A DNA stretch of 64,000 bases from Calditrichaceae bacterium. GTDB taxonomy: Bacteria > Calditrichota > Calditrichia > Calditrichales > JBFXGD01. The stretch lies in NCBI GenBank assembly GCA_050173015.1, contig JBFXLE010000003.1, positions 160,001 through 224,000 on the forward strand, written 5' to 3'. Of the stretch, positions 3,122 to 23,534 are shown piece after piece (position 1 is the stretch's first letter; each line of letters begins with the position of its first letter). A model generated the notes under the pieces. The model searched no databases, was not told the origin of the DNA, and was given only the letters and a program-made list of their open reading frames with translations. A program made the position numbers and the translations under genes.

Positions 3122-3667
3122 TCACTGACGGAAAAACTTTTGGGAATAATATCTGTCAAAAAACATATAAAACACCAAAACAATAATTGAAAAAAGAAAG
3201 ATAAAAACCGGAGCGCCGGCGGATAAATTCCTAATCGATTCAGGGATTACAATTTTAGGAAGCCGGTCTTTGAGCAGACTGATGCCATCAATTTTTTTGC
3301 CAATGGTTTCGTTTAAATGATATAAATCGGATTCCCGGTCTGTGAATAACGAAGGTGACTGACCGGAAAAGGCAATGGAGATTGCAATAACGGCAAGAAG
3401 TAAAAGCGAGACATAAGTGATCCAGTCCCGTTTTGTGACGCTTTTGCGGGACGCCTCTAAAATTCTTGATTCAACGCCCTGAAAGAGGTTTTTATTAACC
3501 GGAACCGGGCGTATTTTTTTTAGCATCTGATGCACTCCGACAGACTGCCCAATCATCTCCTGACAGGACGCACACCCTTCAATATGCAGCATTCTGTCAG
3601 ATCCCAATGAATCCCGGCCTTCCAGAAGATATATTTCTAACTCAGATCCGGATATATGCCTGTTCAA
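3122..3667 (-). CDS. Zinc-binding membrane anti-sigma factor (ZAS type)
   Basis: HxxxCxxC motif (HIEGCASC), two hydrophobic segments, 4-nt overlap with the ECF sigma gene. Confidence 0.8.
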   Translation of the reverse strand: MNRHISGSELEIYLLEGRDSLGSDRMLHIEGCASCQEMIGQSVGVHQMLKKIRPVPVNKNLFQGVESRILEASRKSVTKRDWITYVSLLLLAVIAISIAFSGQSPSLFTDRESDLYHLNETIGKKIDGISLLKDRLPKIVIPESIRNLSAGAPVFIFLFSIIVLVFYMFFDRYYSQKFFRQ

Positions 3668-4272
3668 ATTAGCTCCTCTTTGGAAAAATTACTTAAGAGT
3701 ATTTCCCGCATCCGATTCCGCCCCCGGAAAAGATGCGTTTTTATGGTATTTTGAGGGGTCTCCAATACCCCGGCAATTTCAGAGACACTAAACTCATTAA
3801 GATAATACATCGAAACCACCAAACCCTGTAAAGAAGGTAAACGGTCAATGGCAGCCCACAAAATTGTTTGTAAATTGCGATTATCAAGATCGGGTTCAAT
3901 TTGACCGGCGTCCTGGGTAGTCCAGAGCGTCATCAACTCTGTACTATCCTCCTTATGGTCACCGTGAGAAAAATAATTTTTTCTAATATCACCTGCCGTC
4001 TGCACCACCTGCTTTTTCCGGAGATAATTCAGACAACTGTTATATACAATTTTATACAGCCAGGTCGTAAATTTACCTCGGCCTTCGTACGTTTGAATGT
4101 TATAATATGCTTTTACAAAAACATCCTGCGTCAACTCTTCGGCGACTTCTTTTTTGCGTACCATTTGCATGGCGATGGTGAAGACATAGTCCTGATGCAT
4201 TTGCATGAGAGACTTTAACGCCTTCATATCACCCTTTTTAAGCTGATCGATTAACTCTGTTTCTGTCATCAC
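3664..4272 (-). CDS. ECF RNA polymerase sigma factor
   Basis: Region 2 AEELTQDVF...FTTWLYKI; region 4 SVSEIA...TIKTHLFRGR. Confidence 0.95.
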   Translation of the reverse strand: MMTETELIDQLKKGDMKALKSLMQMHQDYVFTIAMQMVRKKEVAEELTQDVFVKAYYNIQTYEGRGKFTTWLYKIVYNSCLNYLRKKQVVQTAGDIRKNYFSHGDHKEDSTELMTLWTTQDAGQIEPDLDNRNLQTILWAAIDRLPSLQGLVVSMYYLNEFSVSEIAGVLETPQNTIKTHLFRGRNRMREILLSNFSKEELI

Positions 4273-4352: not shown

Positions 4353-4382
4353 TATAGTACAAAACCAAACAGGAGGAAATCA

Positions 4383-4730
4383 ATGCTAGCGGAAATATTA
4401 ATCCCAATCACTTTTTTCATCGCGGTTTCTATAGTCATTTATCAATACTTTCATGGCCGGCATCTTGAAAAAATGAAAATAATTGAAAAAGGAGTAGGAG
4501 GAGATGAGCTAAAGCATCTCCTTGGTCACTACAAAAAAAGCGCGAACAATTTAAATCTTGTAAAATTCGGAATCATTTTAATTGGTATCGGATTAGCCAT
4601 ACTGATTGGGAATTTTATGCCTGAAGATTCGAATGAACAAGTCACATTAAGCCTTATATTTCTATTCCCCGGGATAGGTCTGCTGATTTTTTATCATTTT
4701 TTCCAGAAAAACCAGAAAGATGTCCAATAG
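4383..4730 (+). CDS. Small 3-TM membrane protein (DUF6249-like), ECF-associated
   Basis: Strong RBS, three hydrophobic helices, RHLEKMKIIEKG motif, divergent from the ECF sigma. Confidence 0.7.
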   Translation: MLAEILIPITFFIAVSIVIYQYFHGRHLEKMKIIEKGVGGDELKHLLGHYKKSANNLNLVKFGIILIGIGLAILIGNFMPEDSNEQVTLSLIFLFPGIGLLIFYHFFQKNQKDVQ

Positions 4731-4741
4731 TATCACCCGAC

Positions 4742-4770
4742 ACAGCCGGTCCTGTCATCTGACCGGCTGT
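4742..4770. terminator. Hairpin between convergent genes
   Basis: Perfect 10-bp stem ACAGCCGGTC/GACCGGCTGT. Confidence 0.6.
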
Positions 4771-4787
4771 TCATCTTAAAAATCCGA

Positions 4788-6938
4788 TCAATTAGTGATC
4801 AGTTTTTTTAACTCTTCTGTTGAAAAAACCGGCAGGCTGCATGTGTAATTTTGACAAACATACGCTGTTACTTTTCCATTGATGGGTTCTTTGCCCTGAA
4901 GCAGTGAATTTGTCATCACGGAATGTCCCTTACCGGGAGTGATGATCATCAGCACTTTATTGGGAACGTATGATTGATTGATTACATCCAGGTAGGGACC
5001 AATTTCCATCTCCTGAGGCCGCGCGATCAATATTTCCTTCGGTTTCTTAATATAAAAATCAAGCGCGTTTAAATAGCTTGCGTAACCATAGGGATTTACC
5101 GGAAACTCTCCTCCGTATTTCTTAAATATGTTCTCACATATTTTCATCAGATCATTATCTTCAGTGAGAGAAAATATCCTCAGATTATTTAACAGCATAA
5201 TCCCGGTTCCGGAAGGAATCGACTGATCGGTTTCATCCTTTAGTCTCTTGAAAAGTTCTTCCTGCTCATTTGATGTGTAATAATATCCTCCGTTTTCCGG
5301 ATCCAGAAAATTCTTGTTTACATACTGGGTTAACTCAAAAGCCCATTTTAAATAATCATCATTAAAAAGAGCCTCATATGCATCGAGGAGTCCCCTGATC
5401 AGATTGGCGTAATCATCAAGATAACCACTGTATTTCGCTATGCCATTTTTATATGTCCGCAGCAAGCGCTTGTTTTTATATAATTTTTTTTTCATAAAAT
5501 CGATGTTTTTTTCGATGATTATTCGGTATGAGTCCTTTCTTTCTGTCTGATAGGCCCGCGCGTACGCCGATAACATCAATCCATTCCATGAGGTAAGGAT
5601 TTTATCGTCTAATGCAGGTCTGACGCGATTTTCACGATCGTTTAAAAGGACTATTTTTCCTTCGGCAATAATATTCTTTATTTCATCCGCGGTCTTCTTG
5701 TATTTTTTTCCCAGAGTATCAATATCACCCGAAATATGCAAAATATTGGTCCCTTCAAAATTACCTTTTTCTGTAACACTATAAAAAGAGCAGAAGATTT
5801 CACCATTTTCATTTCCGAGCGACTTCAGGACCTCATCCTTTGTCCATACATAGAATTTTCCCTCTACACCTTCGCTGTCAGCATCCAGACTGCTGTAAAA
5901 TCCGCCGTCATCAGCATAAAGTTCTCTGGAGACGAACTCGAGGACATTAAACGCCACATTCTTATAAAAATCATCACCCGTAAGCAGATATGTATCCAAA
6001 TAGAGAGGCGCCAGCTGCGCGTTATCATAAAGCATTTTTTCAAAATGCGGAACAAGCCAGCGCTCATCAACCGAATATCGGGCAAATCCTCCGCCGATCT
6101 GATCATAAATTCCGCCGTTTGCCATATTCCTAAGCGTAAATGTCACCATATCTAGATAATCTTTATCCCGGTCAGTTTTATATTTTCTCAAGAAAAGATT
6201 TAAAGCCTGAACGGCCGGAAATTTTGGGGCATGACCGATACCGCCGAAATTCGGCTCATAATATTGTTTCAACCCATTTAGAGCCTGATCAAACACTTCA
6301 GGTCCCGGAAGTTCGTCCCCCTGAACTTCTTTCATGGAATGATCAAACGCATCATGCACCTGTTGTATGCTCTTGTCAAGTTTATCTTTTTCATTGTGAT
6401 AAAACTCAGCCACCGACTTTATCAATCTTTTAAATCCCGGTCTGCCATATCGGTCGTCCGGCGGAAAATAGGTGCCTCCGTAAAATGGTTTCTGTTCGGG
6501 TGTCAAAAAAACACTCATCGGCCAGCCGCCACTGCCTGTATACATTTGTACATATGCCATGTAAATCTGATCAATATCCGGCCTTTCCTCACGGTCAACT
6601 TTAATATTTATGAATAATTCATTCATAATCTTTGCGGTCCCTTCATCTTCAAAAGATTCCCTTTCCATCACATGACACCAGTGACAGGCCGCGTAACCGA
6701 TACTCAGGAAAATTGGTTTGTCCTTTTCCTTCGCCAGTCTCAGTGCTTCCTCCCCCCAGGGATACCAGTTTACCGGGTTGTGCGCGTGTTGTAAAAGGTA
6801 TGGGCTTGTTTCGTTGATTAACTGGTTTGTAAATTGATGCATTGGAGTACCCTCAGATTTATTTTTATCCGGACCACAGGCTATGATTAATAGAATAATC
6901 GGCAACATATGATTCAACAACTTGTTCATATCCACCAT
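4788..6938 (-). CDS. YyaL/DUF255 thioredoxin-domain protein with a six-hairpin glycosidase-like domain
   Basis: [36 protein letters not shown] motifs. Confidence 0.92.
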
Positions 6939-8063: not shown

Positions 8064-9230
8064 ATGGGAATTGTTTCGCTGATCGTAATACTGCTATTAT
8101 TGCTTTTGACCTATCTCGCCGGATTAGCCATTCTAAGCAACGGTTTAAATCAACTCGGGATAAAAGAAAGAACGGATAGAAAACCTCGGGTAAGTGTTAT
8201 CATCTCAGCAAGGAATGAAGAGACGAATCTTTCTGATGGACTAAAATATCTTTCTATGCAGTCATATCCAAAAGACTTGATTGAGTTTATTATCGTAAAC
8301 GACCGCTCGACGGACAAAACGGAAGAGATCATTAACAGATACCGCGCTGATGATCCCCGGTTCAGACTAATTACGATTAAAGACCGGATTCCCGGATTCG
8401 CGCCAAAAAAGAGAGCCATTGACACAGCCATAAAATCCGCAAAAGGAGAAATTATTCTGCTGACCGATGCGGATGGCCGACCCGGTTCAAGATGGGTAGA
8501 GACGATGATCTCCTACTTTACCGATGATACCGATATGGTTCTTGGCTACGCGCCGTACACATCTTCAGACTCAGGTTCGTCCACTCAAAAAATGCTCGCG
8601 ATCGAATATCTGTCCCATGCCGTAATTGCCGCGTCAACCACAGGGTTAGGCTATCCAGTAACATGTGTTGGAACAAATATGGCATATCGAAAAGAATTAT
8701 ATAATGATATCGGCGGATTTGGGGAATTTGAACCGTATATCTCAGGAGATGATGATCTTTTCCTGACACGGGTCAGAGAAGCCGGAAAATATAGAGTCCG
8801 TTACGCGCCCGGTAAAACAGCTCATGTTTACAATGATCCACCTAAAACGTGGAGTTCATTCTTTCATCAGCGGATGCGTTACGCCAGCAAGGGATTTGAT
8901 TATCCCATTAAGGTCACTCTCGGCTTGATCACTCTCTTCACCTTTAATTTGATGATTTTTACAGGTATTATATCATATTTTTTAAGTCCGCTGTTTTTTA
9001 AAACCGCTCTTGTCGTGTATGTGGTAAAAACTCTTTCAGAGTTTCTGTTTATGAAAAAAGCCGCGCGCGTATTGAACGACATGCGCAATCTTGATGTTTT
9101 TTTCCTTGCCGCGCTGTTGCATATCCCTTACGTCATTTTCTTTGGGATTGCCGGGCAGTTTAAACAATTTAGATGGGCCGAAGCGGGTGTGGAAAACGCG
9201 CTGCAAACCGATTCCACACAAAGCGCCTGA
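8064..9230 (+). CDS. Family 2 glycosyltransferase, membrane-bound
   Basis: ARNEE, NDRSTD, TDAD, GDDD, QRMRY motifs; TM helices. Confidence 0.9.
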   Translation: MGIVSLIVILLLLLLTYLAGLAILSNGLNQLGIKERTDRKPRVSVIISARNEETNLSDGLKYLSMQSYPKDLIEFIIVNDRSTDKTEEIINRYRADDPRFRLITIKDRIPGFAPKKRAIDTAIKSAKGEIILLTDADGRPGSRWVETMISYFTDDTDMVLGYAPYTSSDSGSSTQKMLAIEYLSHAVIAASTTGLGYPVTCVGTNMAYRKELYNDIGGFGEFEPYISGDDDLFLTRVREAGKYRVRYAPGKTAHVYNDPPKTWSSFFHQRMRYASKGFDYPIKVTLGLITLFTFNLMIFTGIISYFLSPLFFKTALVVYVVKTLSEFLFMKKAARVLNDMRNLDVFFLAALLHIPYVIFFGIAGQFKQFRWAEAGVENALQTDSTQSA

Positions 9231-9264
9231 ATCCTGTCATTAAAATTTCAAAACTTACCGTAGA

Positions 9265-10401
9265 ATGATGGATGCAAATTTGATAACAGAGTTATGCCTG
9301 GTTTTAGGGATCACTTATTTTTTCACCGCGCTTTACCTGATGAGTCAAAAATCTCCGGAAAAAACTGAACAAAGTAATCTTCCTGAGATTTCGGTTCTGG
9401 TAGCGATGAGAGATGAAGAAAAGAACATTTCCTCTTGCCTTCAGTCACTTGCCGGACAAAACTACCCCACTCATCTTTTCAGGGTAATCATAATCGACGA
9501 CCGTTCAGCGGACAATTCGGCCGCGATTGCCGAAGAGTTTGTCAAAAGCAATGAGAATTTTCAGTTGATCCATATCCGGGAAGATTTGCATGGATTATAT
9601 GGGAAGATGAATGCTCTTTCCCAGGCATTGGAGCAAGTTGATTCCGAAATTGTTCTAATTACGGATGCCGATTGTATCGTACCTAAGTCATGGATAAGGA
9701 CCTACGCTTCATATTTTAATCCAAATACCGGGATGACCGGCGGATTAACAACCCTGGTTCCTCTGGAATTTATGAGTATACAAGAGGATTCTGTGCCTCT
9801 GTTCGCTAAAATTCAGGCCATAGACTGGCTATTTTTGCAATCCATTGCCTCGGGTACGAGCAATGCCGGAAAACCTGTGACAATTTTAGGAAACAATTTT
9901 GGATTCAGAATGGCGGCATATCACGAGACCGGCGGATTCAAAAAACTGGGATTTTCTATCACAGAAGATTTCGCGCTGATGAAGGCAATTGAAAAAACAG
10001 GTAACTGGAAAATAAAGCATACACAGGATATCGATAATACCGTATTCAGTTCACCAGTTAAAACACTAAAGGATTTTTATCATCAAAGACAGAGATGGAT
10101 CTCCGGTGGAAAGTCTTCCCGGCCCTGGGGATATTTCCTGATGGCGCAATCGTTGCTGGCTCATATCTCTATAATTCTTGTATTTTCATTTTCACAATGG
10201 AATGCCGGCGCAGGGGCGGGAATAGGGCTTATTTTAGGGATTGATTATTTATTGATAAAACAGCAGACAAGACGATTGAATATTAAATATCTAAACCGAT
10301 ATTTTATCCACTTTGAGATATTTTATATTTTGTACACTGTTATATTTGGAGTACTTTTTTTTCTTCCCACAAAAATTATCTGGAAGAATCGTACCTATTA
10401 A
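9265..10401 (+). CDS. Family 2 glycosyltransferase, membrane-bound
   Basis: DDRSAD, TDADC, TEDF, QRQRW motifs. Confidence 0.9.
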   Translation: MMDANLITELCLVLGITYFFTALYLMSQKSPEKTEQSNLPEISVLVAMRDEEKNISSCLQSLAGQNYPTHLFRVIIIDDRSADNSAAIAEEFVKSNENFQLIHIREDLHGLYGKMNALSQALEQVDSEIVLITDADCIVPKSWIRTYASYFNPNTGMTGGLTTLVPLEFMSIQEDSVPLFAKIQAIDWLFLQSIASGTSNAGKPVTILGNNFGFRMAAYHETGGFKKLGFSITEDFALMKAIEKTGNWKIKHTQDIDNTVFSSPVKTLKDFYHQRQRWISGGKSSRPWGYFLMAQSLLAHISIILVFSFSQWNAGAGAGIGLILGIDYLLIKQQTRRLNIKYLNRYFIHFEIFYILYTVIFGVLFFLPTKIIWKNRTY

Positions 10402-10404
10402 AAT

Positions 10405-10435
10405 AAAAAAAAGGAGCGTGACGCTCCTTTTTTTT
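10405..10435. terminator. Bidirectional intrinsic terminator
   Basis: A8-GGAGCG-TGA-CGCTCC-T8 between convergent genes. Confidence 0.85.
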
Positions 10436-11183
10436 ATTCTATCAGTTTATCTCTTTCCAGATTCCACTGGACCCAGCTGTTTTTCGCGTCATCCGCAATA
10501 TCAAACTCTGATTTCTGAAAAGTACCGTCCGGTTTTACCCTTATCTGCTGCTGGGCTTTAATAATCTCGAACCATTCCTCCATTGTCACCTGTTTTGGTC
10601 CCTGTATCTGTTCAGGACCTTTGATTTGCTGAGGCGGCCCAGGCTTCTTTTGAGGTTCAACAGTACCCATTTGCCAACCGGGAGAACCAACACCCACGCT
10701 TCCTTCGTAAACTTTTACAAGTGTTGTTGAATCGGCTTCAGCATCCATTCTGTAAATGGTGCCTCTGATCGCCACAACCGCAGAGGGCCCTCTTAACTTC
10801 CATTTGTCAGAAGACTTGGTAAGCTTCTTTACATTCGCCCAAAGTTTTCCTATTGAAAGTTCCGACTGAACATTTTTTTCTTTATCAGTGATGCTGGCTT
10901 TTTCAATGGTGTAAATACTCTGTTCATCAATTCTGATAATGCTCCCGTCCTTAAATTTAATCTCGCAGCGTGACTGGGGTTGTGTTTTAACTTTGTCCCC
11001 TTCAAACAGATTCATATTGAACGCTGCTTTGGACATCTGTTTTTCGCCCTTCTTAAGAACAAGAACGTTGCCAAGCGGGAAACTGATCTTTGCCACGCCT
11101 TCCTTGTTCTGGAAAGTATAAGAACTTAGTATAATTGCCATACCAAGCGCTATAACTATAAGGGATGATAATTTATATTTCAT
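10434..11183 (-). CDS. FecR-domain exported protein
   Basis: GDKVKT...FKDGSIIRI...AVVAIRGTIY...VKVYEGSV; signal peptide. Confidence 0.8.
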   Translation of the reverse strand: MKYKLSSLIVIALGMAIILSSYTFQNKEGVAKISFPLGNVLVLKKGEKQMSKAAFNMNLFEGDKVKTQPQSRCEIKFKDGSIIRIDEQSIYTIEKASITDKEKNVQSELSIGKLWANVKKLTKSSDKWKLRGPSAVVAIRGTIYRMDAEADSTTLVKVYEGSVGVGSPGWQMGTVEPQKKPGPPQQIKGPEQIQGPKQVTMEEWFEIIKAQQQIRVKPDGTFQKSEFDIADDAKNSWVQWNLERDKLIE

Positions 11184-11197
11184 ACTTGCCCCCGGTT

Positions 11198-12112
11198 CTA
11201 TTTTACCCTCACCAAATCACCGGTTTCGAAACCACCACCGCCTTTAACTATTGCTTTGGCTGCTTTTCCACCCGCCACATCACTCACAATTTGAATTTGT
11301 CCGATTTTTTGTTCTTCCGAGCCCAGGGACAGCCCTGTATCCGGATCAATCAGATCTTCACCGGGACGAAAAACCCAGAATACCATGCCACTCTTTACTC
11401 CACTCTGCGAGCCTGGTTTCATAAATACGGTTCCGTCGTCATTCGCCTTAATAATTTTTCCCTGCCATGGGATGGATTGCATACCCTTGGTAATTATCTC
11501 GACACATTCATTGACTGATTTTCTTGCGGCTTTTCCAAGAATTGTATTATCCCAGGTAGAAGAATTATGGAAATCAATACCTTCCACACTGACATTATCC
11601 AGACTGGTCGTCGATTCTTCACCAACCGCCTGTTTTGACGTGATTATCTCACCGGTTGTGGTGTTAACAAGCCTGATATCCACTACTGACCGGGCTGAAT
11701 TTTTTTCCACACCCAGGCGGAATCCGCTTAGCTTACTTAACCCGCCGCCAACCTTATTCTCTTTCGTTCCAAATTCACTCACGCTGCCGGTTATCATTAA
11801 TTCCACACCAAGAAGCTGACCGACTTTAGCAGCTGACTGCTCCGTAACCGCTCCGCTCATTCCAAGTCCCTGCTCCTTCAAAATCTCGTCCAGCTCCGCC
11901 CGTTCAATCACCATAAATTTATTGCTTTCGACAAGAGCAGTAACAAGCATATCCGACAATCCGCTGCCGATATCATGTCCATACCGCGCTTTGTCTTCAA
12001 AATTAAAAACAGCCACTCGTTTTTTTAATCCCGCAAGGTCCTGCGCATCCGCAAAGGACACAAGCGATATAAAAACAAATAAACCCACAAATACTTTTAA
12101 TGTGCCTCTCAT
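11198..12112 (-). CDS. CsgG/HfaB-family exported protein with a FlgT-like C-terminal beta domain
   Basis: RVAVFNF...VIERAELDEILKEQ...GSVSEFG...VDIRLVNTTTGEI; C-terminal DPDTG.SLG. Confidence 0.8.
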   Translation of the reverse strand: MRGTLKVFVGLFVFISLVSFADAQDLAGLKKRVAVFNFEDKARYGHDIGSGLSDMLVTALVESNKFMVIERAELDEILKEQGLGMSGAVTEQSAAKVGQLLGVELMITGSVSEFGTKENKVGGGLSKLSGFRLGVEKNSARSVVDIRLVNTTTGEIITSKQAVGEESTTSLDNVSVEGIDFHNSSTWDNTILGKAARKSVNECVEIITKGMQSIPWQGKIIKANDDGTVFMKPGSQSGVKSGMVFWVFRPGEDLIDPDTGLSLGSEEQKIGQIQIVSDVAGGKAAKAIVKGGGGFETGDLVRVK

Positions 12113-13335
12113 CTAAGACCTCCACTCTGATTAACCCCTCCATCACCGGTTAGAATTTTAGCGGTGACTTTGTTTTGTGTCACAGATATGATTTCAAGAT
12201 TAAGCCCCTCAATCGTCTTGTTCGATAATTCAGCGGCAACGGTCTCTGCTTTTTGAGTAATTTCAATATCAAATAATGCCGTTCCGGATTCAAAGCTTCT
12301 CTGATACACTTTTTTAAGTCCGCGAACATAATACGGGAGGCTGTTTTTTAAGGTATTCAACTGGCTGAAATTACTAATATTCAATATTTGTAACTGAATC
12401 TGTCTCGTTTCAAACTGATTTTTCTGAAATTTTTCGACAATTTTATTTTTTAATTCGACAGCTGCCTGTTTCGCGGCTTTTTCCAAAGCAAGCGTGCTAC
12501 CCGTTAAATCATCAATATGCGCGTTAACTCCACGGGCGCTGCTCGTTGCAATTACAACAGCGTCATCCGCCCTTACCGCGCGTAAGGTCAAATTAGCATT
12601 GCAGGATTTCATTCCCGACGACTGCATAACCGGGGGTTGTGTCACAGTAGTTCTGGCGGTTCCGATTATTAAAATTTCCGCGCCGCTTCGTTTGGCGATA
12701 TTGGCGGCGGCTTGAGAATCTCCGGTCATTGCCGCGCTTAATGCATCCTTTGCAACATTCGACTTTGCGGTAGCGGCATCTACAAATGGGAATCCATAGG
12801 ACATTAATTCATTCATCAAAGCCGTTTCGGTGGTGTTCAAATCCGTTGAGATCCATCCGCGATACTGGCCGATATTTTCTTCATCAACCACTACCATCAA
12901 TCGAGGCATTCCCTCACTTTTCAAAACCGTTAATATTCCCTGCAGGTCATTTTTTAGATTCCCGGCCTTAACCACAGCCCGCACCGTTACTTCGAGAGAA
13001 TTATCCGGTCGCTGATTGGTCCCTATCACATCATAGGTTTGCACATAACCGGTTGTCCGTGAGTAGATGTTATCTTCAAGTGTCATAAAGTTTTCTGTGA
13101 CCGTGTTCGCGTCAATAATCGTACCGACCACCTGTTCAACTGCTTTTCGTAGCGCGTCATTTACACCGTCTTCCTTTGCTTTAACCATATCACCGCTCAG
13201 AATTGCGCCGAATCCGGTCGCTACTACCGTTTTGGTTTCATCCGGCGATTGTCCGGCCGCGCTACCGGGATATTGCGATAAAGCCAGGCTTGTAATCGAA
13301 AACACCAAAAAAACAATCGTAAAAATTTTTTTCAT
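12109..13335 (-). CDS. FlgT N-terminal-domain-like exported protein
   Basis: VATGFG...ALRKAVEQVVG..IDANT; signal peptide. Start moved to MKKIF (13335). Confidence 0.65.
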   Translation of the reverse strand: MKKIFTIVFLVFSITSLALSQYPGSAAGQSPDETKTVVATGFGAILSGDMVKAKEDGVNDALRKAVEQVVGTIIDANTVTENFMTLEDNIYSRTTGYVQTYDVIGTNQRPDNSLEVTVRAVVKAGNLKNDLQGILTVLKSEGMPRLMVVVDEENIGQYRGWISTDLNTTETALMNELMSYGFPFVDAATAKSNVAKDALSAAMTGDSQAAANIAKRSGAEILIIGTARTTVTQPPVMQSSGMKSCNANLTLRAVRADDAVVIATSSARGVNAHIDDLTGSTLALEKAAKQAAVELKNKIVEKFQKNQFETRQIQLQILNISNFSQLNTLKNSLPYYVRGLKKVYQRSFESGTALFDIEITQKAETVAAELSNKTIEGLNLEIISVTQNKVTAKILTGDGGVNQSGGLR

Positions 13336-13364
13336 ATCGCTAATCCATTTCAATTTATTTAAAC

Positions 13365-13384
13365 GGGGAGGCAATTCCCTCCCC
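13365..13384 (-). other. Intra-operon GC-rich hairpin (mRNA stabiliser or weak terminator)
   Basis: GGGGAGG-N6-CCTCCCC just after the stop codon at 13390. Confidence 0.45.
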
Positions 13385-13389
13385 TGAAT

Positions 13390-14556
13390 TTAAAACTTGG
13401 ATTTCAAATTTCTTATGATGTTAAGCGACTCAGCACCTGATACGACCTGGAGGGGTTTAAAGGTACCATCTTCAAATCCCGGCATAATTCCCCGTGTTGA
13501 TACAACCATGACCGAGTTAAATACCGGGGATGTATTCAGAACATCCGCGAATGGGGACATTTCTCCGAAAAATTGTGTCTCCATTTTGGAATCATCCCAT
13601 GCTTTTACAAGAAAATGCTCTATCAATCTGGCAAATTCAGCACGATTTACTTTTTCATTAGGACGGAATGTTCCATCCGGGTATTTATCTATGATCCCCA
13701 ATTGAAGACTTTTATCTATAAATGATTTTGCCCAATAATCTTCCGCAACATCAGTCGCGGCCCATTCAGGGGCGCCTGGTGCTGCTTCGCGTTTACCCAT
13801 CATTGTCTGCCCGGGGGCCTGGAAACCGATTTTTTGCTGTGATGGTGATTTCCGGAAGATTTTTTCAACGGGTAATTCGGTTACAAACAGAATGGCCACA
13901 TCTGCGCGGGTAATTTCTTTTTGAGCCGCTATTTTTCTTAATTCCGGTGACTGCCCGGCGACCGCGGCCTGATATTCCGCCAATTCCTTAATTGCCTTGC
14001 TTGCCCGGGTATCCGTATTGTCTATTTCCAGGATTTTCTGGAATGAAGTTTGCGCTTCGATATATTTGCCCCATTGTTTATAGGCAACACCCATCCAGTA
14101 ATAAGCATCTTTTTTTACGCCCTTTTTGTCTTTGACGGATTTTGATCCGTTTACATCATCCACCGCGTCTTTTAACTCATCCACCGCGTCTTCGAATTTA
14201 TTCTGAGCAATGTAAAGACGCCCTTTTGCCACTTTTGCCGGTATCCAATCACCGTCCTTGCTCAGAGACTCCTTTATCAGAATCTCTGCGCCGGCGAGAT
14301 CACCCTTTTCCAATTTCACGATTCCAAGACCTTCATATGCCGGAGCGAAATTTGCTTTTAAGCCTTTAGCGAGATTAAACTCACGTTCCGCATTACTTAG
14401 GTCATTACTATTTAAAAATTTCACACCCTGATTATAATGATATTCGGGAGTATCCAGAATAGATTCCGCTTTTCTCTCCTTAGGAGCGGCACACCCCTGA
14501 AAAATAAAAACAGAAGCAACAATTAACACGAATATTTTTATCATAGCGTTTCGCAT
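13390..14556 (-). CDS. Lipoprotein with TPR repeats and S-layer homology (SLH) domains
   Basis: Lipobox FQGC; TPR helices; SLH motifs YPDGTFRPNEKVNRAE and GFEDGTFKP. Confidence 0.85.
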   Translation of the reverse strand: MRNAMIKIFVLIVASVFIFQGCAAPKERKAESILDTPEYHYNQGVKFLNSNDLSNAEREFNLAKGLKANFAPAYEGLGIVKLEKGDLAGAEILIKESLSKDGDWIPAKVAKGRLYIAQNKFEDAVDELKDAVDDVNGSKSVKDKKGVKKDAYYWMGVAYKQWGKYIEAQTSFQKILEIDNTDTRASKAIKELAEYQAAVAGQSPELRKIAAQKEITRADVAILFVTELPVEKIFRKSPSQQKIGFQAPGQTMMGKREAAPGAPEWAATDVAEDYWAKSFIDKSLQLGIIDKYPDGTFRPNEKVNRAEFARLIEHFLVKAWDDSKMETQFFGEMSPFADVLNTSPVFNSVMVVSTRGIMPGFEDGTFKPLQVVSGAESLNIIRNLKSKF

Positions 14557-14569
14557 GTTCTTTCTCCTG

Positions 14570-15418
14570 TTAATCTAAAATGATCATTACTTTGCACTGT
14601 TCCATAAAATTTAGATTTTTTGCTGCTGCCATTATATTTGCGGCGTCGCTATTGCTAATCACCACATCAGCCTTATTTGATCCTGATACTTTGAGGCCTT
14701 TAACAATCACAGGATTATTGGTAACTCTTTCATTGGTTTTCGCCCGATTCAGATCTTTATCATAACCTACAACACCAATCTGCACGGCATAATCACGGCT
14801 TACGTATCCGGTACCATAAACTTCATTACCGGTTTCATCCACGATTTTCGGCGCCATTGCCGGCCGGAGCCCTAAACCCCTGGCATCGATAATCAGCCCT
14901 GTATATACCGCGTTCTGATATGTCGGTTGAGGCTGAGCGGCATTGTACATCATGTTTGGATTCACACCGCCAATCTGCTGAGGCAACAGAGCGTCCAGTA
15001 ATATTCCGCTGATGGGGATTTCAACATCGACTTCCACACTTCCGTCGCTGAGATATCTCGTGTCAACTTTTCTAAAATTCTTGACTACGCCGCTGACTTT
15101 CGAAGTAATGACATCACTTTCAACCATAGCATTTCTTACGATTGTTTCTGATGTCAGATTCATACCTTTTACAGTTTCCAGCAATTGACGCAGCGCATCC
15201 ATTTCCCCGGCTCTAATTGCGCCAGCACGCTGGGCTGCCAAAGGAACATTGGGATTGGGAGCGCCAATACCGGTCGCGCGAATAACCTGATCCTGCCAAT
15301 TAACTGTACCGGCATTGGGAACCTGCTGATAGATCTGCGCATTCAACACCAAAAATGAGAATAAAACAGTTATCACGATTCCCAATAAATAATAAGACCT
15401 TCTCATGAAATCCTCCAT
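14570..15418 (-). CDS. LPP20-like exported protein
   Basis: VNWQDQVIRATGIG...ALRQLLETVKG; YTGLIIDARGL..PAMAP; signal peptide. Confidence 0.65.
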   Translation of the reverse strand: MEDFMRRSYYLLGIVITVLFSFLVLNAQIYQQVPNAGTVNWQDQVIRATGIGAPNPNVPLAAQRAGAIRAGEMDALRQLLETVKGMNLTSETIVRNAMVESDVITSKVSGVVKNFRKVDTRYLSDGSVEVDVEIPISGILLDALLPQQIGGVNPNMMYNAAQPQPTYQNAVYTGLIIDARGLGLRPAMAPKIVDETGNEVYGTGYVSRDYAVQIGVVGYDKDLNRAKTNERVTNNPVIVKGLKVSGSNKADVVISNSDAANIMAAAKNLNFMEQCKVMIILD

Positions 15419-15625
15419 ACATTAATTTATGTGCAAAATTAGAGACGGTTCAAATGAAGATGAGTTCAATTAAAAGAATTGGTGTGCTTGAGTCTGTGAT
15501 AAAAGTCACCAGGCACGCTGCTATTTGGCTCTTTTTCAGTTAAATTGTGTCTCATGAACCGGAACACTTTCTATATATGAAAAAGCCTATCTATCTGACT
15601 TTAGAACATTTATCACAATGGAAAG

Positions 15626-15697
<72 letters not shown>

Positions 15698-15709
15698 CAT
15701 AATTTATTA

Positions 15710-15738
15710 AATTTAGATGATCACCCAATTCATGTCAA
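15710..15738 (-). promoter_or_regulatory. Sigma70 promoter of tRNA-Gly
   Basis: TTGACA-17 nt-TAAATT. Confidence 0.75.
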
Positions 15739-15768
15739 GTAATTAAAATGATTGATTTTAGGATGATC

Positions 15769-17010
15769 CTACAGATTCTGCATACAAACATGAGCAAAAA
15801 CCTTGGTATCATTAACAAGATTTTCGATGACACAATATTCATTAGGCTGATGCGCGAGATCATCTATTGTGGACCAAACCGCCACATTGAATCCGGCGCG
15901 TCTAAAAATAGCGGCAACCGTACCGCCGCCGATACCCATCGCTTTCGCGTCCGTATTGTAAACATCTTTAACCGCCTTTTTTAATGCCATTACCACCGGT
16001 GCGTCAACCGGCGTCGCGGGCGCGGCCTGTTCTTTTTGTTCAGTCGATATCTCAATCTTCACATTGAATTTCTTCTCAATGCCATCACAGATATCTTTAA
16101 CCCGGGCCAACACATCTTCAATTGAGTATTCCGGAATTATCCGGCAGTCAAGATAAAAAACATCATCACCGGGAATCGTATTGATGTTTGGCACATTTGA
16201 TTCCTTTTTTGTCGGCTCAAAGGTACTGATGGGCGGGTCAAATACCGGATCTGACGCGCCGAACAACTGATGCAGCTGATCAAGTTCCACAACAAGATTG
16301 GAAGCTGCCTTGAAGGCATTGATGCCCTTCTCAGGCATACTGGCATGCACCTGTCTGCCTCGTGTTTTAAATTTGATCCATAAAATTGATTTTTCTGCCA
16401 CTTCTATCATACTTGAATCGGACTCCCCGGCATCGGGTACGATAAAAATATCTTCTTTTTTAAACAGATCCGAATGATTTTCAATCATAAATTCAAGGCC
16501 GAACCGGCTTCCCGTCTCCTCGTCTGAGACTAATAAAATCGCAAGATTATTTTCAGGCTGGATGCCTTCATCTGTAAAGGCCTTTGCAGTCATAATCGCA
16601 CTAACGAGGCCCTGGTTATTGTCTTCAGTCCCGCGACCGTATATTTTCCCATTTTTGATCACCGCTTCAAAAGGATTCGTATCCCATTTGGATCGATCAC
16701 CTTCCGGCACCACATCCAAATGAGCCATAATCCAGACAGTTCGATTCCTGTTCTTTCCCGGTATCCTCGCGACCAGATTGGGGCGCAGTCCTCCCGGAAC
16801 AGAAGGATCCGGCGCCGGATATTCCTCGATCTCTTTAATTCCAATTGCCTTTAAATAATCTTTTATAAATTCCGCTTTTTCACTCTCTCCGCTTCCATCA
16901 TTTAAAGGTCCCAATGATTTAATCGGAATAATATTTTTCATCAATTCAATGGCTTCCGTCCCAAGGTCATCAATCTGGCGGTTAAGTTTTGCTAAATTCT
17001 CGTTTGACAT
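15769..17010 (-). CDS. M20 metallopeptidase (ArgE/DapE family)
   Basis: AHLDVVP, GRGTEDN, SDEETG, HAS, AHQPNE motifs. Confidence 0.9.
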   Translation of the reverse strand: MSNENLAKLNRQIDDLGTEAIELMKNIIPIKSLGPLNDGSGESEKAEFIKDYLKAIGIKEIEEYPAPDPSVPGGLRPNLVARIPGKNRNRTVWIMAHLDVVPEGDRSKWDTNPFEAVIKNGKIYGRGTEDNNQGLVSAIMTAKAFTDEGIQPENNLAILLVSDEETGSRFGLEFMIENHSDLFKKEDIFIVPDAGESDSSMIEVAEKSILWIKFKTRGRQVHASMPEKGINAFKAASNLVVELDQLHQLFGASDPVFDPPISTFEPTKKESNVPNINTIPGDDVFYLDCRIIPEYSIEDVLARVKDICDGIEKKFNVKIEISTEQKEQAAPATPVDAPVVMALKKAVKDVYNTDAKAMGIGGGTVAAIFRRAGFNVAVWSTIDDLAHQPNEYCVIENLVNDTKVFAHVCMQNL

Positions 17011-21386: not shown

Positions 21387-21420
21387 AAAAAAAAAGGCAA
21401 CCATATGGTTGCCCTTTTTT
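21387..21420 (-). terminator. Intrinsic terminator after tonB
   Basis: GGCAACC-ATAT-GGTTGCC flanked by A/T tracts. Confidence 0.8.
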
Positions 21421-22048
21421 ATTTGAGTTTGAACTGGAAAGGAATGTTCATTTTAACTTTTACAAATTTATCCCTTTGCTTAGCGGGTTTGAAGGTACAC
21501 TTCTTTGCCGCTTCCAAAGCTGCCTCGTCTAACATAGGTATCGATTTAAAAACTCTCGCATCCTGAACTATACCTGTTTTGCTGATGGTCACAGTAATGA
21601 CTACAATTCCTTCAATACCGGCTTTACGGGCCAAATCAGGAAACTGAGGTGTCTCTTTGTGAACCAGCACCGGTTTCTCAGAAACGGCGAAGAATTCGTA
21701 AACTTCATCTTCTTCAGGTGGAGGAGGAGGAGGTAACTCTTCAAATCGTTCAAAATTAACCTCTGTTTCTGCAATTGTTACATCGTCCAGCAAATCTTCA
21801 TCTTCAGATTCCACAGGTATAGATGGTCTTGATGGGGGAGGTGGTTTCTGGACCTGCTGTGTTTTAGGAATTTCGATCGTTTCGATGATAATATCCGGTT
21901 GTTCCGGAAGAGTCATCCCGGTTTCGAATTTCTTAAATGCATAAAATACCAATATCAGTATTAACAATGATATTGCAATTGCGGCTTCCAGGGCTTTTCT
22001 ATATTTTAGTCTCAAGTCAGCTTCAGGATTTTTTTTCAATGCCTTCAT
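21419..22048 (-). CDS. tonB: Energy transducer TonB
   Basis: TM anchor, Pro-rich linker, C-terminal P.LAR.AGIEG..LDEAAL..FKPA. Confidence 0.9.
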   Translation of the reverse strand: MKALKKNPEADLRLKYRKALEAAIAISLLILILVFYAFKKFETGMTLPEQPDIIIETIEIPKTQQVQKPPPPSRPSIPVESEDEDLLDDVTIAETEVNFERFEELPPPPPPEEDEVYEFFAVSEKPVLVHKETPQFPDLARKAGIEGIVVITVTISKTGIVQDARVFKSIPMLDEAALEAAKKCTFKPAKQRDKFVKVKMNIPFQFKLK

Positions 22049-22465
22049 TTAAAATACTCCTGGTATTGCTGAATAATTAATTCGAAGTGCACTTGCTTTC
22101 CTTAGTTCCTGATGCACTTTATTTACAATTCCCATATTGGCCGTTTTATCAATTTTCAACGCGACGATAAGTTGAGGATCAGTTACTAATTTTTGATATA
22201 CGACATTACGCAAATCATTAACTTTTTTAATTGCTACGTCATCACAAATTATCTGGCTGTCTCTATCCAGCCAAATTGTGGCAACATGGCGTTTCGATCC
22301 TTCGATTTTCTTAATTTTTACGGCATCAGGAAGCTGTACTTTCAAGCCCGAATATTGCTTAAAAACAGTCGCGACCATAAAAAATATCAAAAGCATGAAG
22401 ATGATATCCGGCATGGATGCCGTCGGGATCGCAACATTTATCTTACTTTTTTTCGAAAATTTCAT
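22049..22465 (-). CDS. exbD: ExbD/TolR biopolymer transporter
   Basis: TM motif ASMPDIIFMLLIFFMV. Confidence 0.9.
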   Translation of the reverse strand: MKFSKKSKINVAIPTASMPDIIFMLLIFFMVATVFKQYSGLKVQLPDAVKIKKIEGSKRHVATIWLDRDSQIICDDVAIKKVNDLRNVVYQKLVTDPQLIVALKIDKTANMGIVNKVHQELRKASALRINYSAIPGVF

Positions 22466-22483
22466 AATATACAGCCTCTAGTG

Positions 22484-22891
22484 TTAATCTTCTTCTGGTT
22501 CAGCCAGTGATATACGTTTTGCTTCCGCCTTTTTTAGTTGATCTAAAACTTTGATATAAGTTTCGTATCTTGTTTCTTTATCCGTTTTCACAGAAACGAT
22601 CAACAACTCATTTTCATAAATCTTCTCTTTTACCGCCCGCGCGACATCAGAGAGTTCAATGAGCTCGTTATCCAACAAAATTTGTCCCTGTGCATTCACA
22701 AGCAGATTGGTTAGATTCTTCTTTGGAACTTTAATTTCGATATCACCCGGAGCGGGAAGTACCAAATCCAAACCTTTTTCCGTATCAATGGATGTTGTTA
22801 CCAGGAAGAAAATCAACAACAGGAAAACGATGTCAGACAAGGATGCTGACGGAATTTCAACGTTTTTATCTCGTTTTTTACCGAGTAACAT
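22484..22891 (-). CDS. exbD: ExbD/TolR biopolymer transporter (second copy)
   Basis: TM motif ASLSDIVFLLLIFFLV. Confidence 0.9.
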   Translation of the reverse strand: MLLGKKRDKNVEIPSASLSDIVFLLLIFFLVTTSIDTEKGLDLVLPAPGDIEIKVPKKNLTNLLVNAQGQILLDNELIELSDVARAVKEKIYENELLIVSVKTDKETRYETYIKVLDQLKKAEAKRISLAEPEED

Positions 22892-22916
22892 ATTTCTTCC
22901 TCAATTAACAGGGTAA

Positions 22917-23534
22917 TTATTTATTGGAATCTTGCATTTCAATTAATGCATCCATTAGCTCGACGGAACTTTCTTCCATATCAATGATCAATTTATCAAT
23001 TCTGGATGTGAAGAAGTTGTAAAACACCTGAATGATCATAGCGACAACCAAACCAAAAAGCGTGGTCAACAAAGCCTGAGAAATACCACCCGCTACGATA
23101 GCAGGAGAAATATCATTAGCTTTCTTAATAGCGTCAAAAGCGCCAACCATACCGGCTACTGTTCCGGTAAATCCTAACATCGGTGCCAGAACGATAACCG
23201 TTGTCAACACAACCATACCTCTTTCAAGAAATGCCATTTCGATAGATCCAGCGTTTGTGATTGCTTTCTCCACATGCGACAATCCTTTATCGGCTCTTGA
23301 AAGACCCGCATGTAATATTGAAGCGACCGGGCCAGTTGTTTTTTCACATTCCGCGGCAGCGCCTTCAATGCCACCTTCCTGTAATGCCGCATGTAACCTG
23401 GTCAAAAATTTTCTAGTATTTACAGATGCCCGTGTTAAAGTCCATAAGCGTTCCAATGAATAAGCCAGCCCAATGATCAACAGACCAAGGATCGGCCACA
23501 TGAATATCCCACCGGCTAAAAAAAGCTCTACCAT
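22917..23534 (-). CDS. exbB: ExbB/TolQ/MotA proton channel
   Basis: APMLGFTGTV.GM..AF, GISQALLTT.FGL.VA motifs. Confidence 0.92.
   Translation of the reverse strand: MVELFLAGGIFMWPILGLLIIGLAYSLERLWTLTRASVNTRKFLTRLHAALQEGGIEGAAAECEKTTGPVASILHAGLSRADKGLSHVEKAITNAGSIEMAFLERGMVVLTTVIVLAPMLGFTGTVAGMVGAFDAIKKANDISPAIVAGGISQALLTTLFGLVVAMIIQVFYNFFTSRIDKLIIDMEESSVELMDALIEMQDSNK

Follow-up and report, generated by a model that had tools for sequence, protein, structure and literature searches.

Five co-oriented genes in a 64-kb stretch of a Calditrichaceae bacterium genome form a conserved operon that may encode an exported, flagellum-independent envelope scaffold, a reading whose chances we regard as evenly balanced. 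The genes, here called g1 to g5, lie on contig JBFXLE010000003.1 (positions 160,001 to 224,000; this whole 64,000-nt stretch is hereafter the window) of source genome G000, which comprises 54 contigs and is 97.5% complete. Their order is kept in loci with many different phylum labels and they evolve under purifying selection. Their distribution does not follow that of flagellar genes, and the SLH domain of one product is private to the module. Three products, g1, g3, and g4, are related by sequence profile or predicted fold to FlgP and FlgT, which form rings around the LP ring in flagellar motors. In the literature searched (most subscription journals lie outside it) we found no description of a non-flagellar operon of FlgP/FlgT type, and the operon appears to put folds and families that are already known to use in a flagellum-independent system not described before.

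Conservation and flagellar independence of the operon

The five open reading frames (ORFs) span positions 15418-10434 on the minus strand. Likely true starts are 15406 for g1, where GGAGGA lies 5 nt upstream and an Atlas record begins at the same residue, and 13335 for g3, based on homologue lengths of 390-408 aa. With these starts the gaps are 13 nt between g1 and g2, 54 nt between g2 and g3, and 14 nt between g4 and g5, and the g3 stop and g4 start share 4 nt, an overlap suggestive of coupled translation. The terminator downstream of g5, a GC hairpin between A8 and T8 tracts, is common to g5 and a convergent glycosyltransferase gene and has a fold energy of -23.4 kcal/mol (z -10.0; 0/200 shuffles fold equally well). 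Read by eye, all five proteins carry N-terminal hydrophobic export signals, among which g2 alone has a lipobox Cys.

Strong full-length matches to g3 occur in 12/41 related genomes. All five genes are present in the same order in 8/11 loci from Calditrichota relatives, and the exceptions are two loci of one genus without g4 and a 2.9-kb contig with g2, g3, and g5 only. The genus without a clustered g4 holds just paralogues that are 28-32% identical and located elsewhere. In the window the operon is flanked by two GT2 glycosyltransferase genes, one M20 peptidase gene, and one HD hydrolase gene; in G040, a genome from a different family, the five genes persist without M20, HD, or GT2 neighbours in the available DNA.

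At larger distances, the g3 family counts 3818 representative clusters when E ≤ 0.001 is required and 244 at E ≤ 1e-30. Scanning one genome per species yielded at least 379 confirmed loci, of which the best 80 were analysed. Groups named in the titles of these records are Calditrichota, KSB1, Zixibacteria, WOR-3, Nitrospinota, Edwardsbacteria, Desulfobacterota/Deltaproteobacteria, Myxococcota, Nitrospirota, Acidobacteriota, and Zhuqueibacterota, among others. Gene content was assessed with phmmer, comparing the five window proteins with locus ORFs, in those 55 loci where g3 has 2.6 kb or more of DNA on each side. Of these, 50 contain g1, 37 g2, 48 g4, and 43 g5; 22 loci are ordered 1-2-3-4-5 and 8 are ordered 1-2-3-4-4-5. 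KSB1-type loci carry a second CsgG-family copy, which is a lipoprotein, and six Desulfobacterota-type loci encode a small PEGA-domain protein between g4 and g5 (e.g., L073:10970-11287). Genes for a DUF512 radical-SAM/PDZ protein, EngA/Der, and a DUF6055 protein also lie beside the cluster outside Calditrichota; we read these as housekeeping synteny and rejected them as module parts.

The five genes are under purifying selection. Between G000 and genome G001, the ratio of nonsynonymous to synonymous substitution rates (dN/dS) is 0.030 for g1, 0.036 for g2, 0.054 for g3, 0.046 for g4, and 0.029 for g5, and two neighbouring enzyme genes give 0.028 and 0.026 in the same comparison. FliF was found in neither member of this pair.

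The module does not depend on flagellar genes for its presence. G000 gave no match to FliF, Flagellin_N, FlgI (PF02119), or FlgH (PF02107), and its lineage appears to be non-flagellate. FliF is present in 50/86 Calditrichota genomes searched. With g1 as the marker, these 86 related, and hence not independent, genomes divide into 26 with both g1 and FliF, 24 with g1 and no FliF, 24 with FliF and no g1, and 12 with neither; of the 24 that have g1 and lack FliF, 16 have a completeness of 90% or more, and one of 100%. Two Calditrichota genomes that each consist of a single contig, G002 and G115, are among those with g1. Among the 12 relatives with a strong g3 match, FliF occurs in 8 and is lacking in 4 (completeness 97.5, 95, 94, and 52%), and it occurs in 14/33 module-bearing genomes of other lineages (of unstated completeness). 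In genomes where the positions of both were established, FliF is over 200 kb distant from the module in G050 and G051 and on a contig of different number or name in G004, G007, G015, and G053. None of the recurrent gene families scanned in the best 80 loci is flagellar. For curli, searches of G000 for CsgF (PF10614) and curlin repeats (PF07012) found no match; CsgE was not searched for.

Much of the initial annotation survives this comparison. It described five exported, co-oriented genes with short gaps that end at a bidirectional terminator, and ORF coordinates, gaps, and hairpin all agree. It saw no flagellar, curli, TonB-receptor, or extracytoplasmic function (ECF) sigma factor gene next to the operon, and the scan of window neighbours concurs: the nearest ECF sigma gene (3664-4272) is 6.2 kb off, beyond four other genes, and TonB/ExbBD genes lie about 6 kb away (21419-23534). 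It had staked its proposal in advance on the five genes being conserved as a unit and not strictly following flagellar genes; they stay together in loci with many phylum labels, and they do not follow flagellar genes either within or beyond Calditrichota. Its description of the system as unrelated to flagella holds for context and distribution but not for ancestry, since parts of the module are homologous to flagellar ring proteins.

Protein architectures and their known relatives

The best conserved of the five is g1, whose mean column identity across 26 orthologues of many phyla is 47%. A profile of these orthologues matches Treponema pallidum Tp0624 (5jir_B) at E 1.2e-14, aligning profile positions 35-275 to chain residues 14-263 and thus covering domains D1 and D2 in tandem. 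It also matches residues 70-161 of 9hmf_C, presumably the FlgP chain, at E 3.2e-12; this alignment is gapless and includes a hairpin insert between the SHS2 helix and the second strand. Structure 9HMF is a model of the Campylobacter jejuni periplasmic scaffold, and its description associates ring oligomerisation in the FlgP family with an insertion at this place (Drobnic et al. 2025, PMC12222027). The N-terminal domain of g1 additionally matches Vibrio FlgP (E 5.2e-7). By these profile matches, the "LPP20-like" protein is a homologue of the Tp0624 D1-D2 unit that carries a FlgP-type hairpin insert. It differs from C. jejuni FlgP in having no lipobox, an extra D2-like C-terminal domain, and no flagellar context. 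It differs from Tp0624 in ending at D2, whereas Tp0624 has a fused OmpA-like third domain, D3; in the module, wall binding would instead be supplied in trans by g2. A Tp0624 report (PMC5104382) counts nearly 50 proteins of other bacteria with D1-D2 and no OmpA-like D3 and gives the function of D1-D2 as unknown; g1 probably belongs to this group.

For g3, the predicted model (pLDDT, or predicted score on the local distance difference test, 85.9) gives 8z5n_0 (E 4.7e-11) and the FlgT crystal structure 3w1e (E 5.2e-10) as best Foldseek matches. Chain 8z5n_0, from the Vibrio LPHT-ring structure, is presumably FlgT in the assembled ring, judging by its length and by a ranking that parallels 3w1e. 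In VIA, g3 aligns with the N and M domains of FlgT (Z 10.9; 223-225 residues, model range 35/37-304 of 408), a score level with those of single-domain matches to CT253, PelC, CsgG, and TolB-N (Z 11-12). A separate alpha/beta domain, residues 310-395, lies outside the FlgT alignment, and a conserved 20-residue insert (78-97), modelled at low confidence, sits at the place of the FlgP insert. A profile of 38 family members matches 9hmf_C (E 4.2e-8). On the model, g3 is a FlgT N+M-like protein. Its signal peptide, like that of g1, has no Cys by eye.

The g4 protein belongs to the Pfam CsgG family (PF03783, 126.1 bits against a cut-off of 20.8) and matches Escherichia coli CsgG by sequence (E 4e-6), and its predicted structure (pLDDT 82.3) is that of the FlgT middle and C-terminal domains. 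It matches 8z5n_0 in Foldseek (E 3.4e-15, template modelling (TM) score 0.66) and in VIA (Z 21.1, root-mean-square deviation 3.0, 247 residues; model 26-304 to chain 117-376). In the VIA ranking, 3w1e follows at Z 17.4, the next row is at 14.4, and CsgG chains are at 10-12. Pfam FlgT_M scores 14.1 bits on g4 against a cut-off of 31.2, and FlgT_C is not listed. The signal peptide ends ...SFADA/QD with no Cys, and some second-copy and Desulfobacterota homologues of g4 do have a Cys in the signal peptide. Thus g4 resembles curli CsgG (PDB 4uv3, 6si7) in family and in the common alpha/beta core fold, but it lacks the lipobox, adds a C-terminal beta-barrel domain, and is nearer to FlgT. The domains N, M, and C of FlgT do not occur together in one chain here: g3 has N and M with another C-terminal domain, and g4 has M and C only. 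A complex prediction of g3 30-400 with g1 24-278, with alignments as input, scored 0.00 and 0.23 against a mark of 0.32, which speaks neither for nor against binding.

Vibrio offers a close assembled counterpart, in which FlgT, FlgP, and FlgO, with MotX and MotY, are parts of the H-ring and T-ring (PDB 3w1e, 8z5n; bioRxiv 10.64898/2025.12.04.692373). The likeness extends beyond the FlgT-type domains of g3 and g4 and the FlgP/FlgT-type SHS2 domains of g1 and g3: the TPR and wall-binding parts of g2 parallel MotX (TPR) and MotY (wall-binding), and all of the proteins are periplasmic. In contrast to the Vibrio rings, the module occurs in a genome with no FlgH, FlgI, FliF, or flagellin found, divides the FlgT domains between two proteins, uses an SLH rather than an OmpA-like wall-binder, adds a FecR-domain protein, and has no lipoprotein among g1, g3, and g4. 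It also spans many phyla. FlgT is not known outside Gammaproteobacteria.

The SLH domain of g2 is private to the module. Pfam SLH scores 82.9 bits against a cut-off of 20.8 over two repeats, several TPR families pass their cut-offs (TPR_2, E 6e-12), and in 23 orthologues Cys22 never varies and three SLH-like motifs are retained across phyla. In a whole-genome search of G000, SLH matches occur nowhere but at these two repeats; of five further module-bearing genomes, four have their sole SLH match at the g2 orthologue, as placed by coordinates, and the fifth has no match. The pyruvyl transferase CsaB (PF04230), source of the usual SLH ligand, was searched for in G000 and the five further genomes and found in none. 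The g2 SLH domain probably binds something other than a pyruvylated polymer. SLH domains of some diderm bacteria bind modified peptidoglycan directly.

In an alignment of 26 orthologues, the FecR domain of g5 (PF04773, 59.1 bits; cut-off 24) is followed by a linker rich in P and Q and a C-terminal segment rich in Trp; the g5 profile found no relative among solved structures. We considered and rejected g5 as a FecR-type anti-sigma factor. It shares the FecR domain with such proteins, but it cannot be one because only 6 residues precede its hydrophobic segment, leaving no cytoplasmic anti-sigma domain; the distance of the nearest ECF gene and the lack of a receptor gene nearby agree.

Two members of the module have distant relatives in Leptospira. 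The closest NCBIfam model to g3 is LipL46 (NF033164; E 4.5e-20, 71.7 bits against a cut-off of 400), nearly full length from residues 30-358 to positions 34-367 of 413. Those closest to g5, over its FecR domain, are LipL45 (NF033165; E 1.1e-18, 67.5 bits against a cut-off of 350) and Lsa33 (NF047849; E 1.8e-17, below cut-off). The scores are far below the cut-offs, and g3 and g5 have no lipobox. Studies of the leptospiral proteins have treated them as surface antigens and adhesins. Within the g3 family, fusions were seen in one metagenomic representative each, with an N-terminal FlgO/CsgG-like domain in P0228, a C-terminal SH3_3 domain in P0234, and an N-terminal Ser/Thr kinase in P0243. Taken with the OmpA-like domain that Tp0624 carries, these architectures point to wall-associated roles and also leave room for a sensing role.

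Elsewhere in G000 there are two CsgG-like and two FecR-like paralogues, and both CsgG-like loci gave no informative context. As a separate observation, locus L102 (G000:C2:217000-227500; ORFs 4369-5529 and 5545-6666) encodes a fusion of TPR and CsgG/TolB-N-like domains, followed by a weakly FadL/Toluene_X-like outer-membrane protein and another TPR protein.

Leader, tRNA gene, and flanking genes

Upstream of g1 lies a tRNA-Gly(CCC) gene that the initial annotation overlooked (Table 1). The same tRNA-Gly(CCC) is found 86-297 nt upstream of the g1 ORF in 24 of the 58 module loci that have 400 nt or more of upstream sequence, and these tRNA-linked loci (L021-L070) carry the labels Calditrichota, Zixibacteria, KSB1, "Cytophagia", and Zhuqueibacterota. 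Both hexamers of a sigma-70-like promoter upstream of the tRNA hold their position in an alignment of Calditrichota relatives, and no terminator-like site was seen between tRNA-Gly and g1 in the window. It is possible that this promoter is common to tRNA and operon and that both are part of one transcript. An Rfam search of the leader (15350-15800) matched the tRNA alone. The idea that the tRNA supplies translation of the module was dropped: GGG makes up 13.5% of module Gly codons and 16.8% of those in 15 other window genes. The 218-nt operon leader also contains a palindrome that we take to resemble a CRP/FNR-type site and treat as a lead only; GTGA-N6-TCAC has one match in the window and at least one in 40/100 shuffles, which is not beyond chance, and a similar motif is found in L021 and L022.

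Table 1. Positions of the operon genes and associated features in the window
Feature	Coordinates	Strand	Description and basis
g1	14570..15406	-	Exported, 278 aa; N-terminal SHS2/LPP20 (FlgP-type) domain with hairpin insert, variable linker, C-terminal Tp0624-D2 homologue
g2	13390..14556	-	Lipoprotein, 388 aa; TPR repeats and SLH domain (two Pfam repeats and a third, degenerate motif)
g3	12109..13335	-	Exported, 408 aa; FlgT-like N (SHS2) and M (TolB-N/CsgG/PelC fold) domains, different alpha/beta C-terminal domain
g4	11198..12112	-	Exported, 304 aa; Pfam CsgG family, no lipobox; predicted FlgT M+C-like two-domain structure
g5	10434..11183	-	249 aa; N-terminal signal/anchor, FecR beta-sandwich, P/Q-rich linker, conserved Trp-rich C-terminal segment
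Bidirectional intrinsic terminator	10405..10436		Between g5 and convergent GT2 gene; sequence and fold energy
tRNA-Gly(CCC)	15625..15697	-	Co-oriented, directly upstream of g1; ARAGORN, Rfam tRNA 65.5 bits
Putative sigma-70-like promoter	15710..15738	-	TTGACA-17-TAAATT, upstream of tRNA; consensus scan, 10/12 matches
Palindrome	15496..15509		GTGATAAAAGTCAC (GTGA-N6-TCAC), in operon leader

Other tRNA genes occur at the far end of some loci. A tRNA-Val lies 56-114 nt downstream of g5 in L077, L081, and L085, which have Myxococcota or Deltaproteobacteria labels, and about 700 nt downstream of g5 in Desulfobacterota-type loci (L075, L076, L087, and L092). In the window, the two GT2 genes are in tandem at 8064-10401, convergent to the operon, and are kept beside it in several Calditrichota relatives; the pair was not seen beside the module in loci of other phyla. 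A peroxiredoxin ORF at 7117-7548 matches AhpC-TSA only from profile position 54 on, which indicates a miscalled start or a 5′-truncated gene.

Alternative explanations and a proposed scaffold model

Several observations weigh against a scaffold built from all five proteins. Two Pfam families that would support it stay below their cut-offs, LPP20 on g1 (16.6 bits against 25.9) and FlgT_N on g3 (19.7 bits against 28.8). The M-domain fold (TolB-N/CsgG/PelC/LptE/LpoB) is also present in proteins that build no rings, such as TolB and LpoB, and the lipid anchor of FlgP has no counterpart in g1, g3, or g4. In some lineages parts of the module are dispensable, given the loss of g4 in one genus and the absence of g2 from 18/55 loci, for example those of Zixibacteria type. 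Short-range synteny is itself weak proof of joint function, as the flanking M20, HD, and GT2 genes are likewise kept in close relatives. Of the labels in the initial annotation, SLH/TPR, CsgG, and FecR pass Pfam cut-offs, and LPP20 and FlgT fall short there yet are backed by profile and fold searches. The CsgG-like label is right at the level of family, but a CsgG ring is the wrong model for g4. The suggestion of a ring scaffold in that annotation is partly supported, in that three of the five proteins are built from FlgP/FlgT-type modules.

The synteny of close relatives would fit the possibility that five exported proteins are neighbours through shared regulation or inherited synteny and act separately. 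DUF512 and EngA genes follow the cluster in other phyla and tRNA-Gly travels with it, as would be expected under this explanation. Yet the order 1-2-3-4-5 outlasts changes of flanks over phylum-level distances (G040 and the KSB1, Nitrospinota, and Desulfobacterota loci), the genes have short gaps and the g3/g4 overlap, and three of the five share FlgP/FlgT-type modules; we consider separate action very unlikely. Homology to FlgP and FlgT, together with FliF in 26/50 g1-bearing Calditrichota genomes and 14/33 carriers of other lineages, would also fit an accessory of the flagellar motor, H- or T-ring-like, in use in the flagellated carriers and retained temporarily after flagellar loss. FliF is however absent from 24/50 g1-bearing Calditrichota genomes and present in 24/36 without g1, its genomic position is remote from the module where both were located, no flagellar family recurs in the scanned loci, and dN/dS of 0.03-0.05 between two FliF-less genomes indicates ongoing constraint, which makes a flagellar relic highly improbable.

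The CsgG-family domain raises a further possibility, that g4 is an outer-membrane secretion channel and the other proteins its periplasmic accessories, exporting a peptide, amyloid, or polysaccharide. Besides the Pfam and sequence matches to CsgG, the monomer model of g4 shows long beta-hairpins at 105-121 and 135-150, with tips of low confidence, presumably lying roughly where CsgG has its membrane hairpins; the exopolysaccharide-export lipoprotein PelC has the same fold, and in Calditrichales two GT2 genes converge on the operon. We nonetheless judge a channel distinctly unlikely: g4 is far nearer to FlgT M+C than to CsgG and has no lipobox Cys, G000 has no CsgF or curlin repeats, no candidate substrate gene recurs in the cluster, the GT2 pair does not accompany the module outside Calditrichota, and g4 is the very part lost in a genus that keeps g1, g2, g3, and g5. 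An envelope-sensing or peptidoglycan-regulating module, with LpoB-/TolB-N-like domains and a FecR sensor and without a large scaffold, would account for LpoB among the sequence and fold matches, the kinase fusion in P0243, and the presence, in 10 of the best 80 loci, of an upstream ECF sigma gene in opposite orientation; FecR domains act in trans-envelope signalling. It too seems unlikely, as g5 has no cytoplasmic domain for signalling, genes for a sigma factor, kinase, or penicillin-binding protein do not regularly belong to the cluster, and whole-protein structural matches are nearest to ring subunits rather than to LpoB.

Under the scaffold interpretation, g1, g3, and g4 would bind one another and form an oligomeric assembly, shaped as a ring, arc, or disk, just beneath the outer membrane. 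The lipoprotein g2 would tether this assembly, with its lipid anchor in the outer membrane, its SLH domain on the cell wall, and its TPR repeats holding partner proteins, and the FecR beta-sandwich protein g5 may be an accessory periplasmic subunit. Such a structure could brace the outer membrane or surround another trans-envelope machine. More tentatively, and with some doubt, we suggest that the module could be a free-living counterpart of the flagellar H-ring, T-ring, and basal disk, and possibly their evolutionary source: a self-assembling ring or disk of FlgP/FlgT type, pinned to the wall by SLH through a non-pyruvylated ligand, with FlgT as the possible product of a later fusion between a g1/g3-type N domain and a g4-type M+C protein.

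The module gives Tp0624 D1-D2 and LipL46/LipL45 a common genomic context. The occurrence of the sole SLH domain in this lipoprotein in 5/6 genomes, with CsaB in 0/6, raises the question of what SLH domains of diderm bacteria bind. The operon also suggests that many little-known phyla have an envelope structure so far unstudied. Older envelope proteins are the presumed source of the accessory rings of high-torque flagellar motors, and a widespread operon of FlgP/FlgT-type parts, under strong constraint in bacteria without flagella, is a concrete candidate for such an older system.

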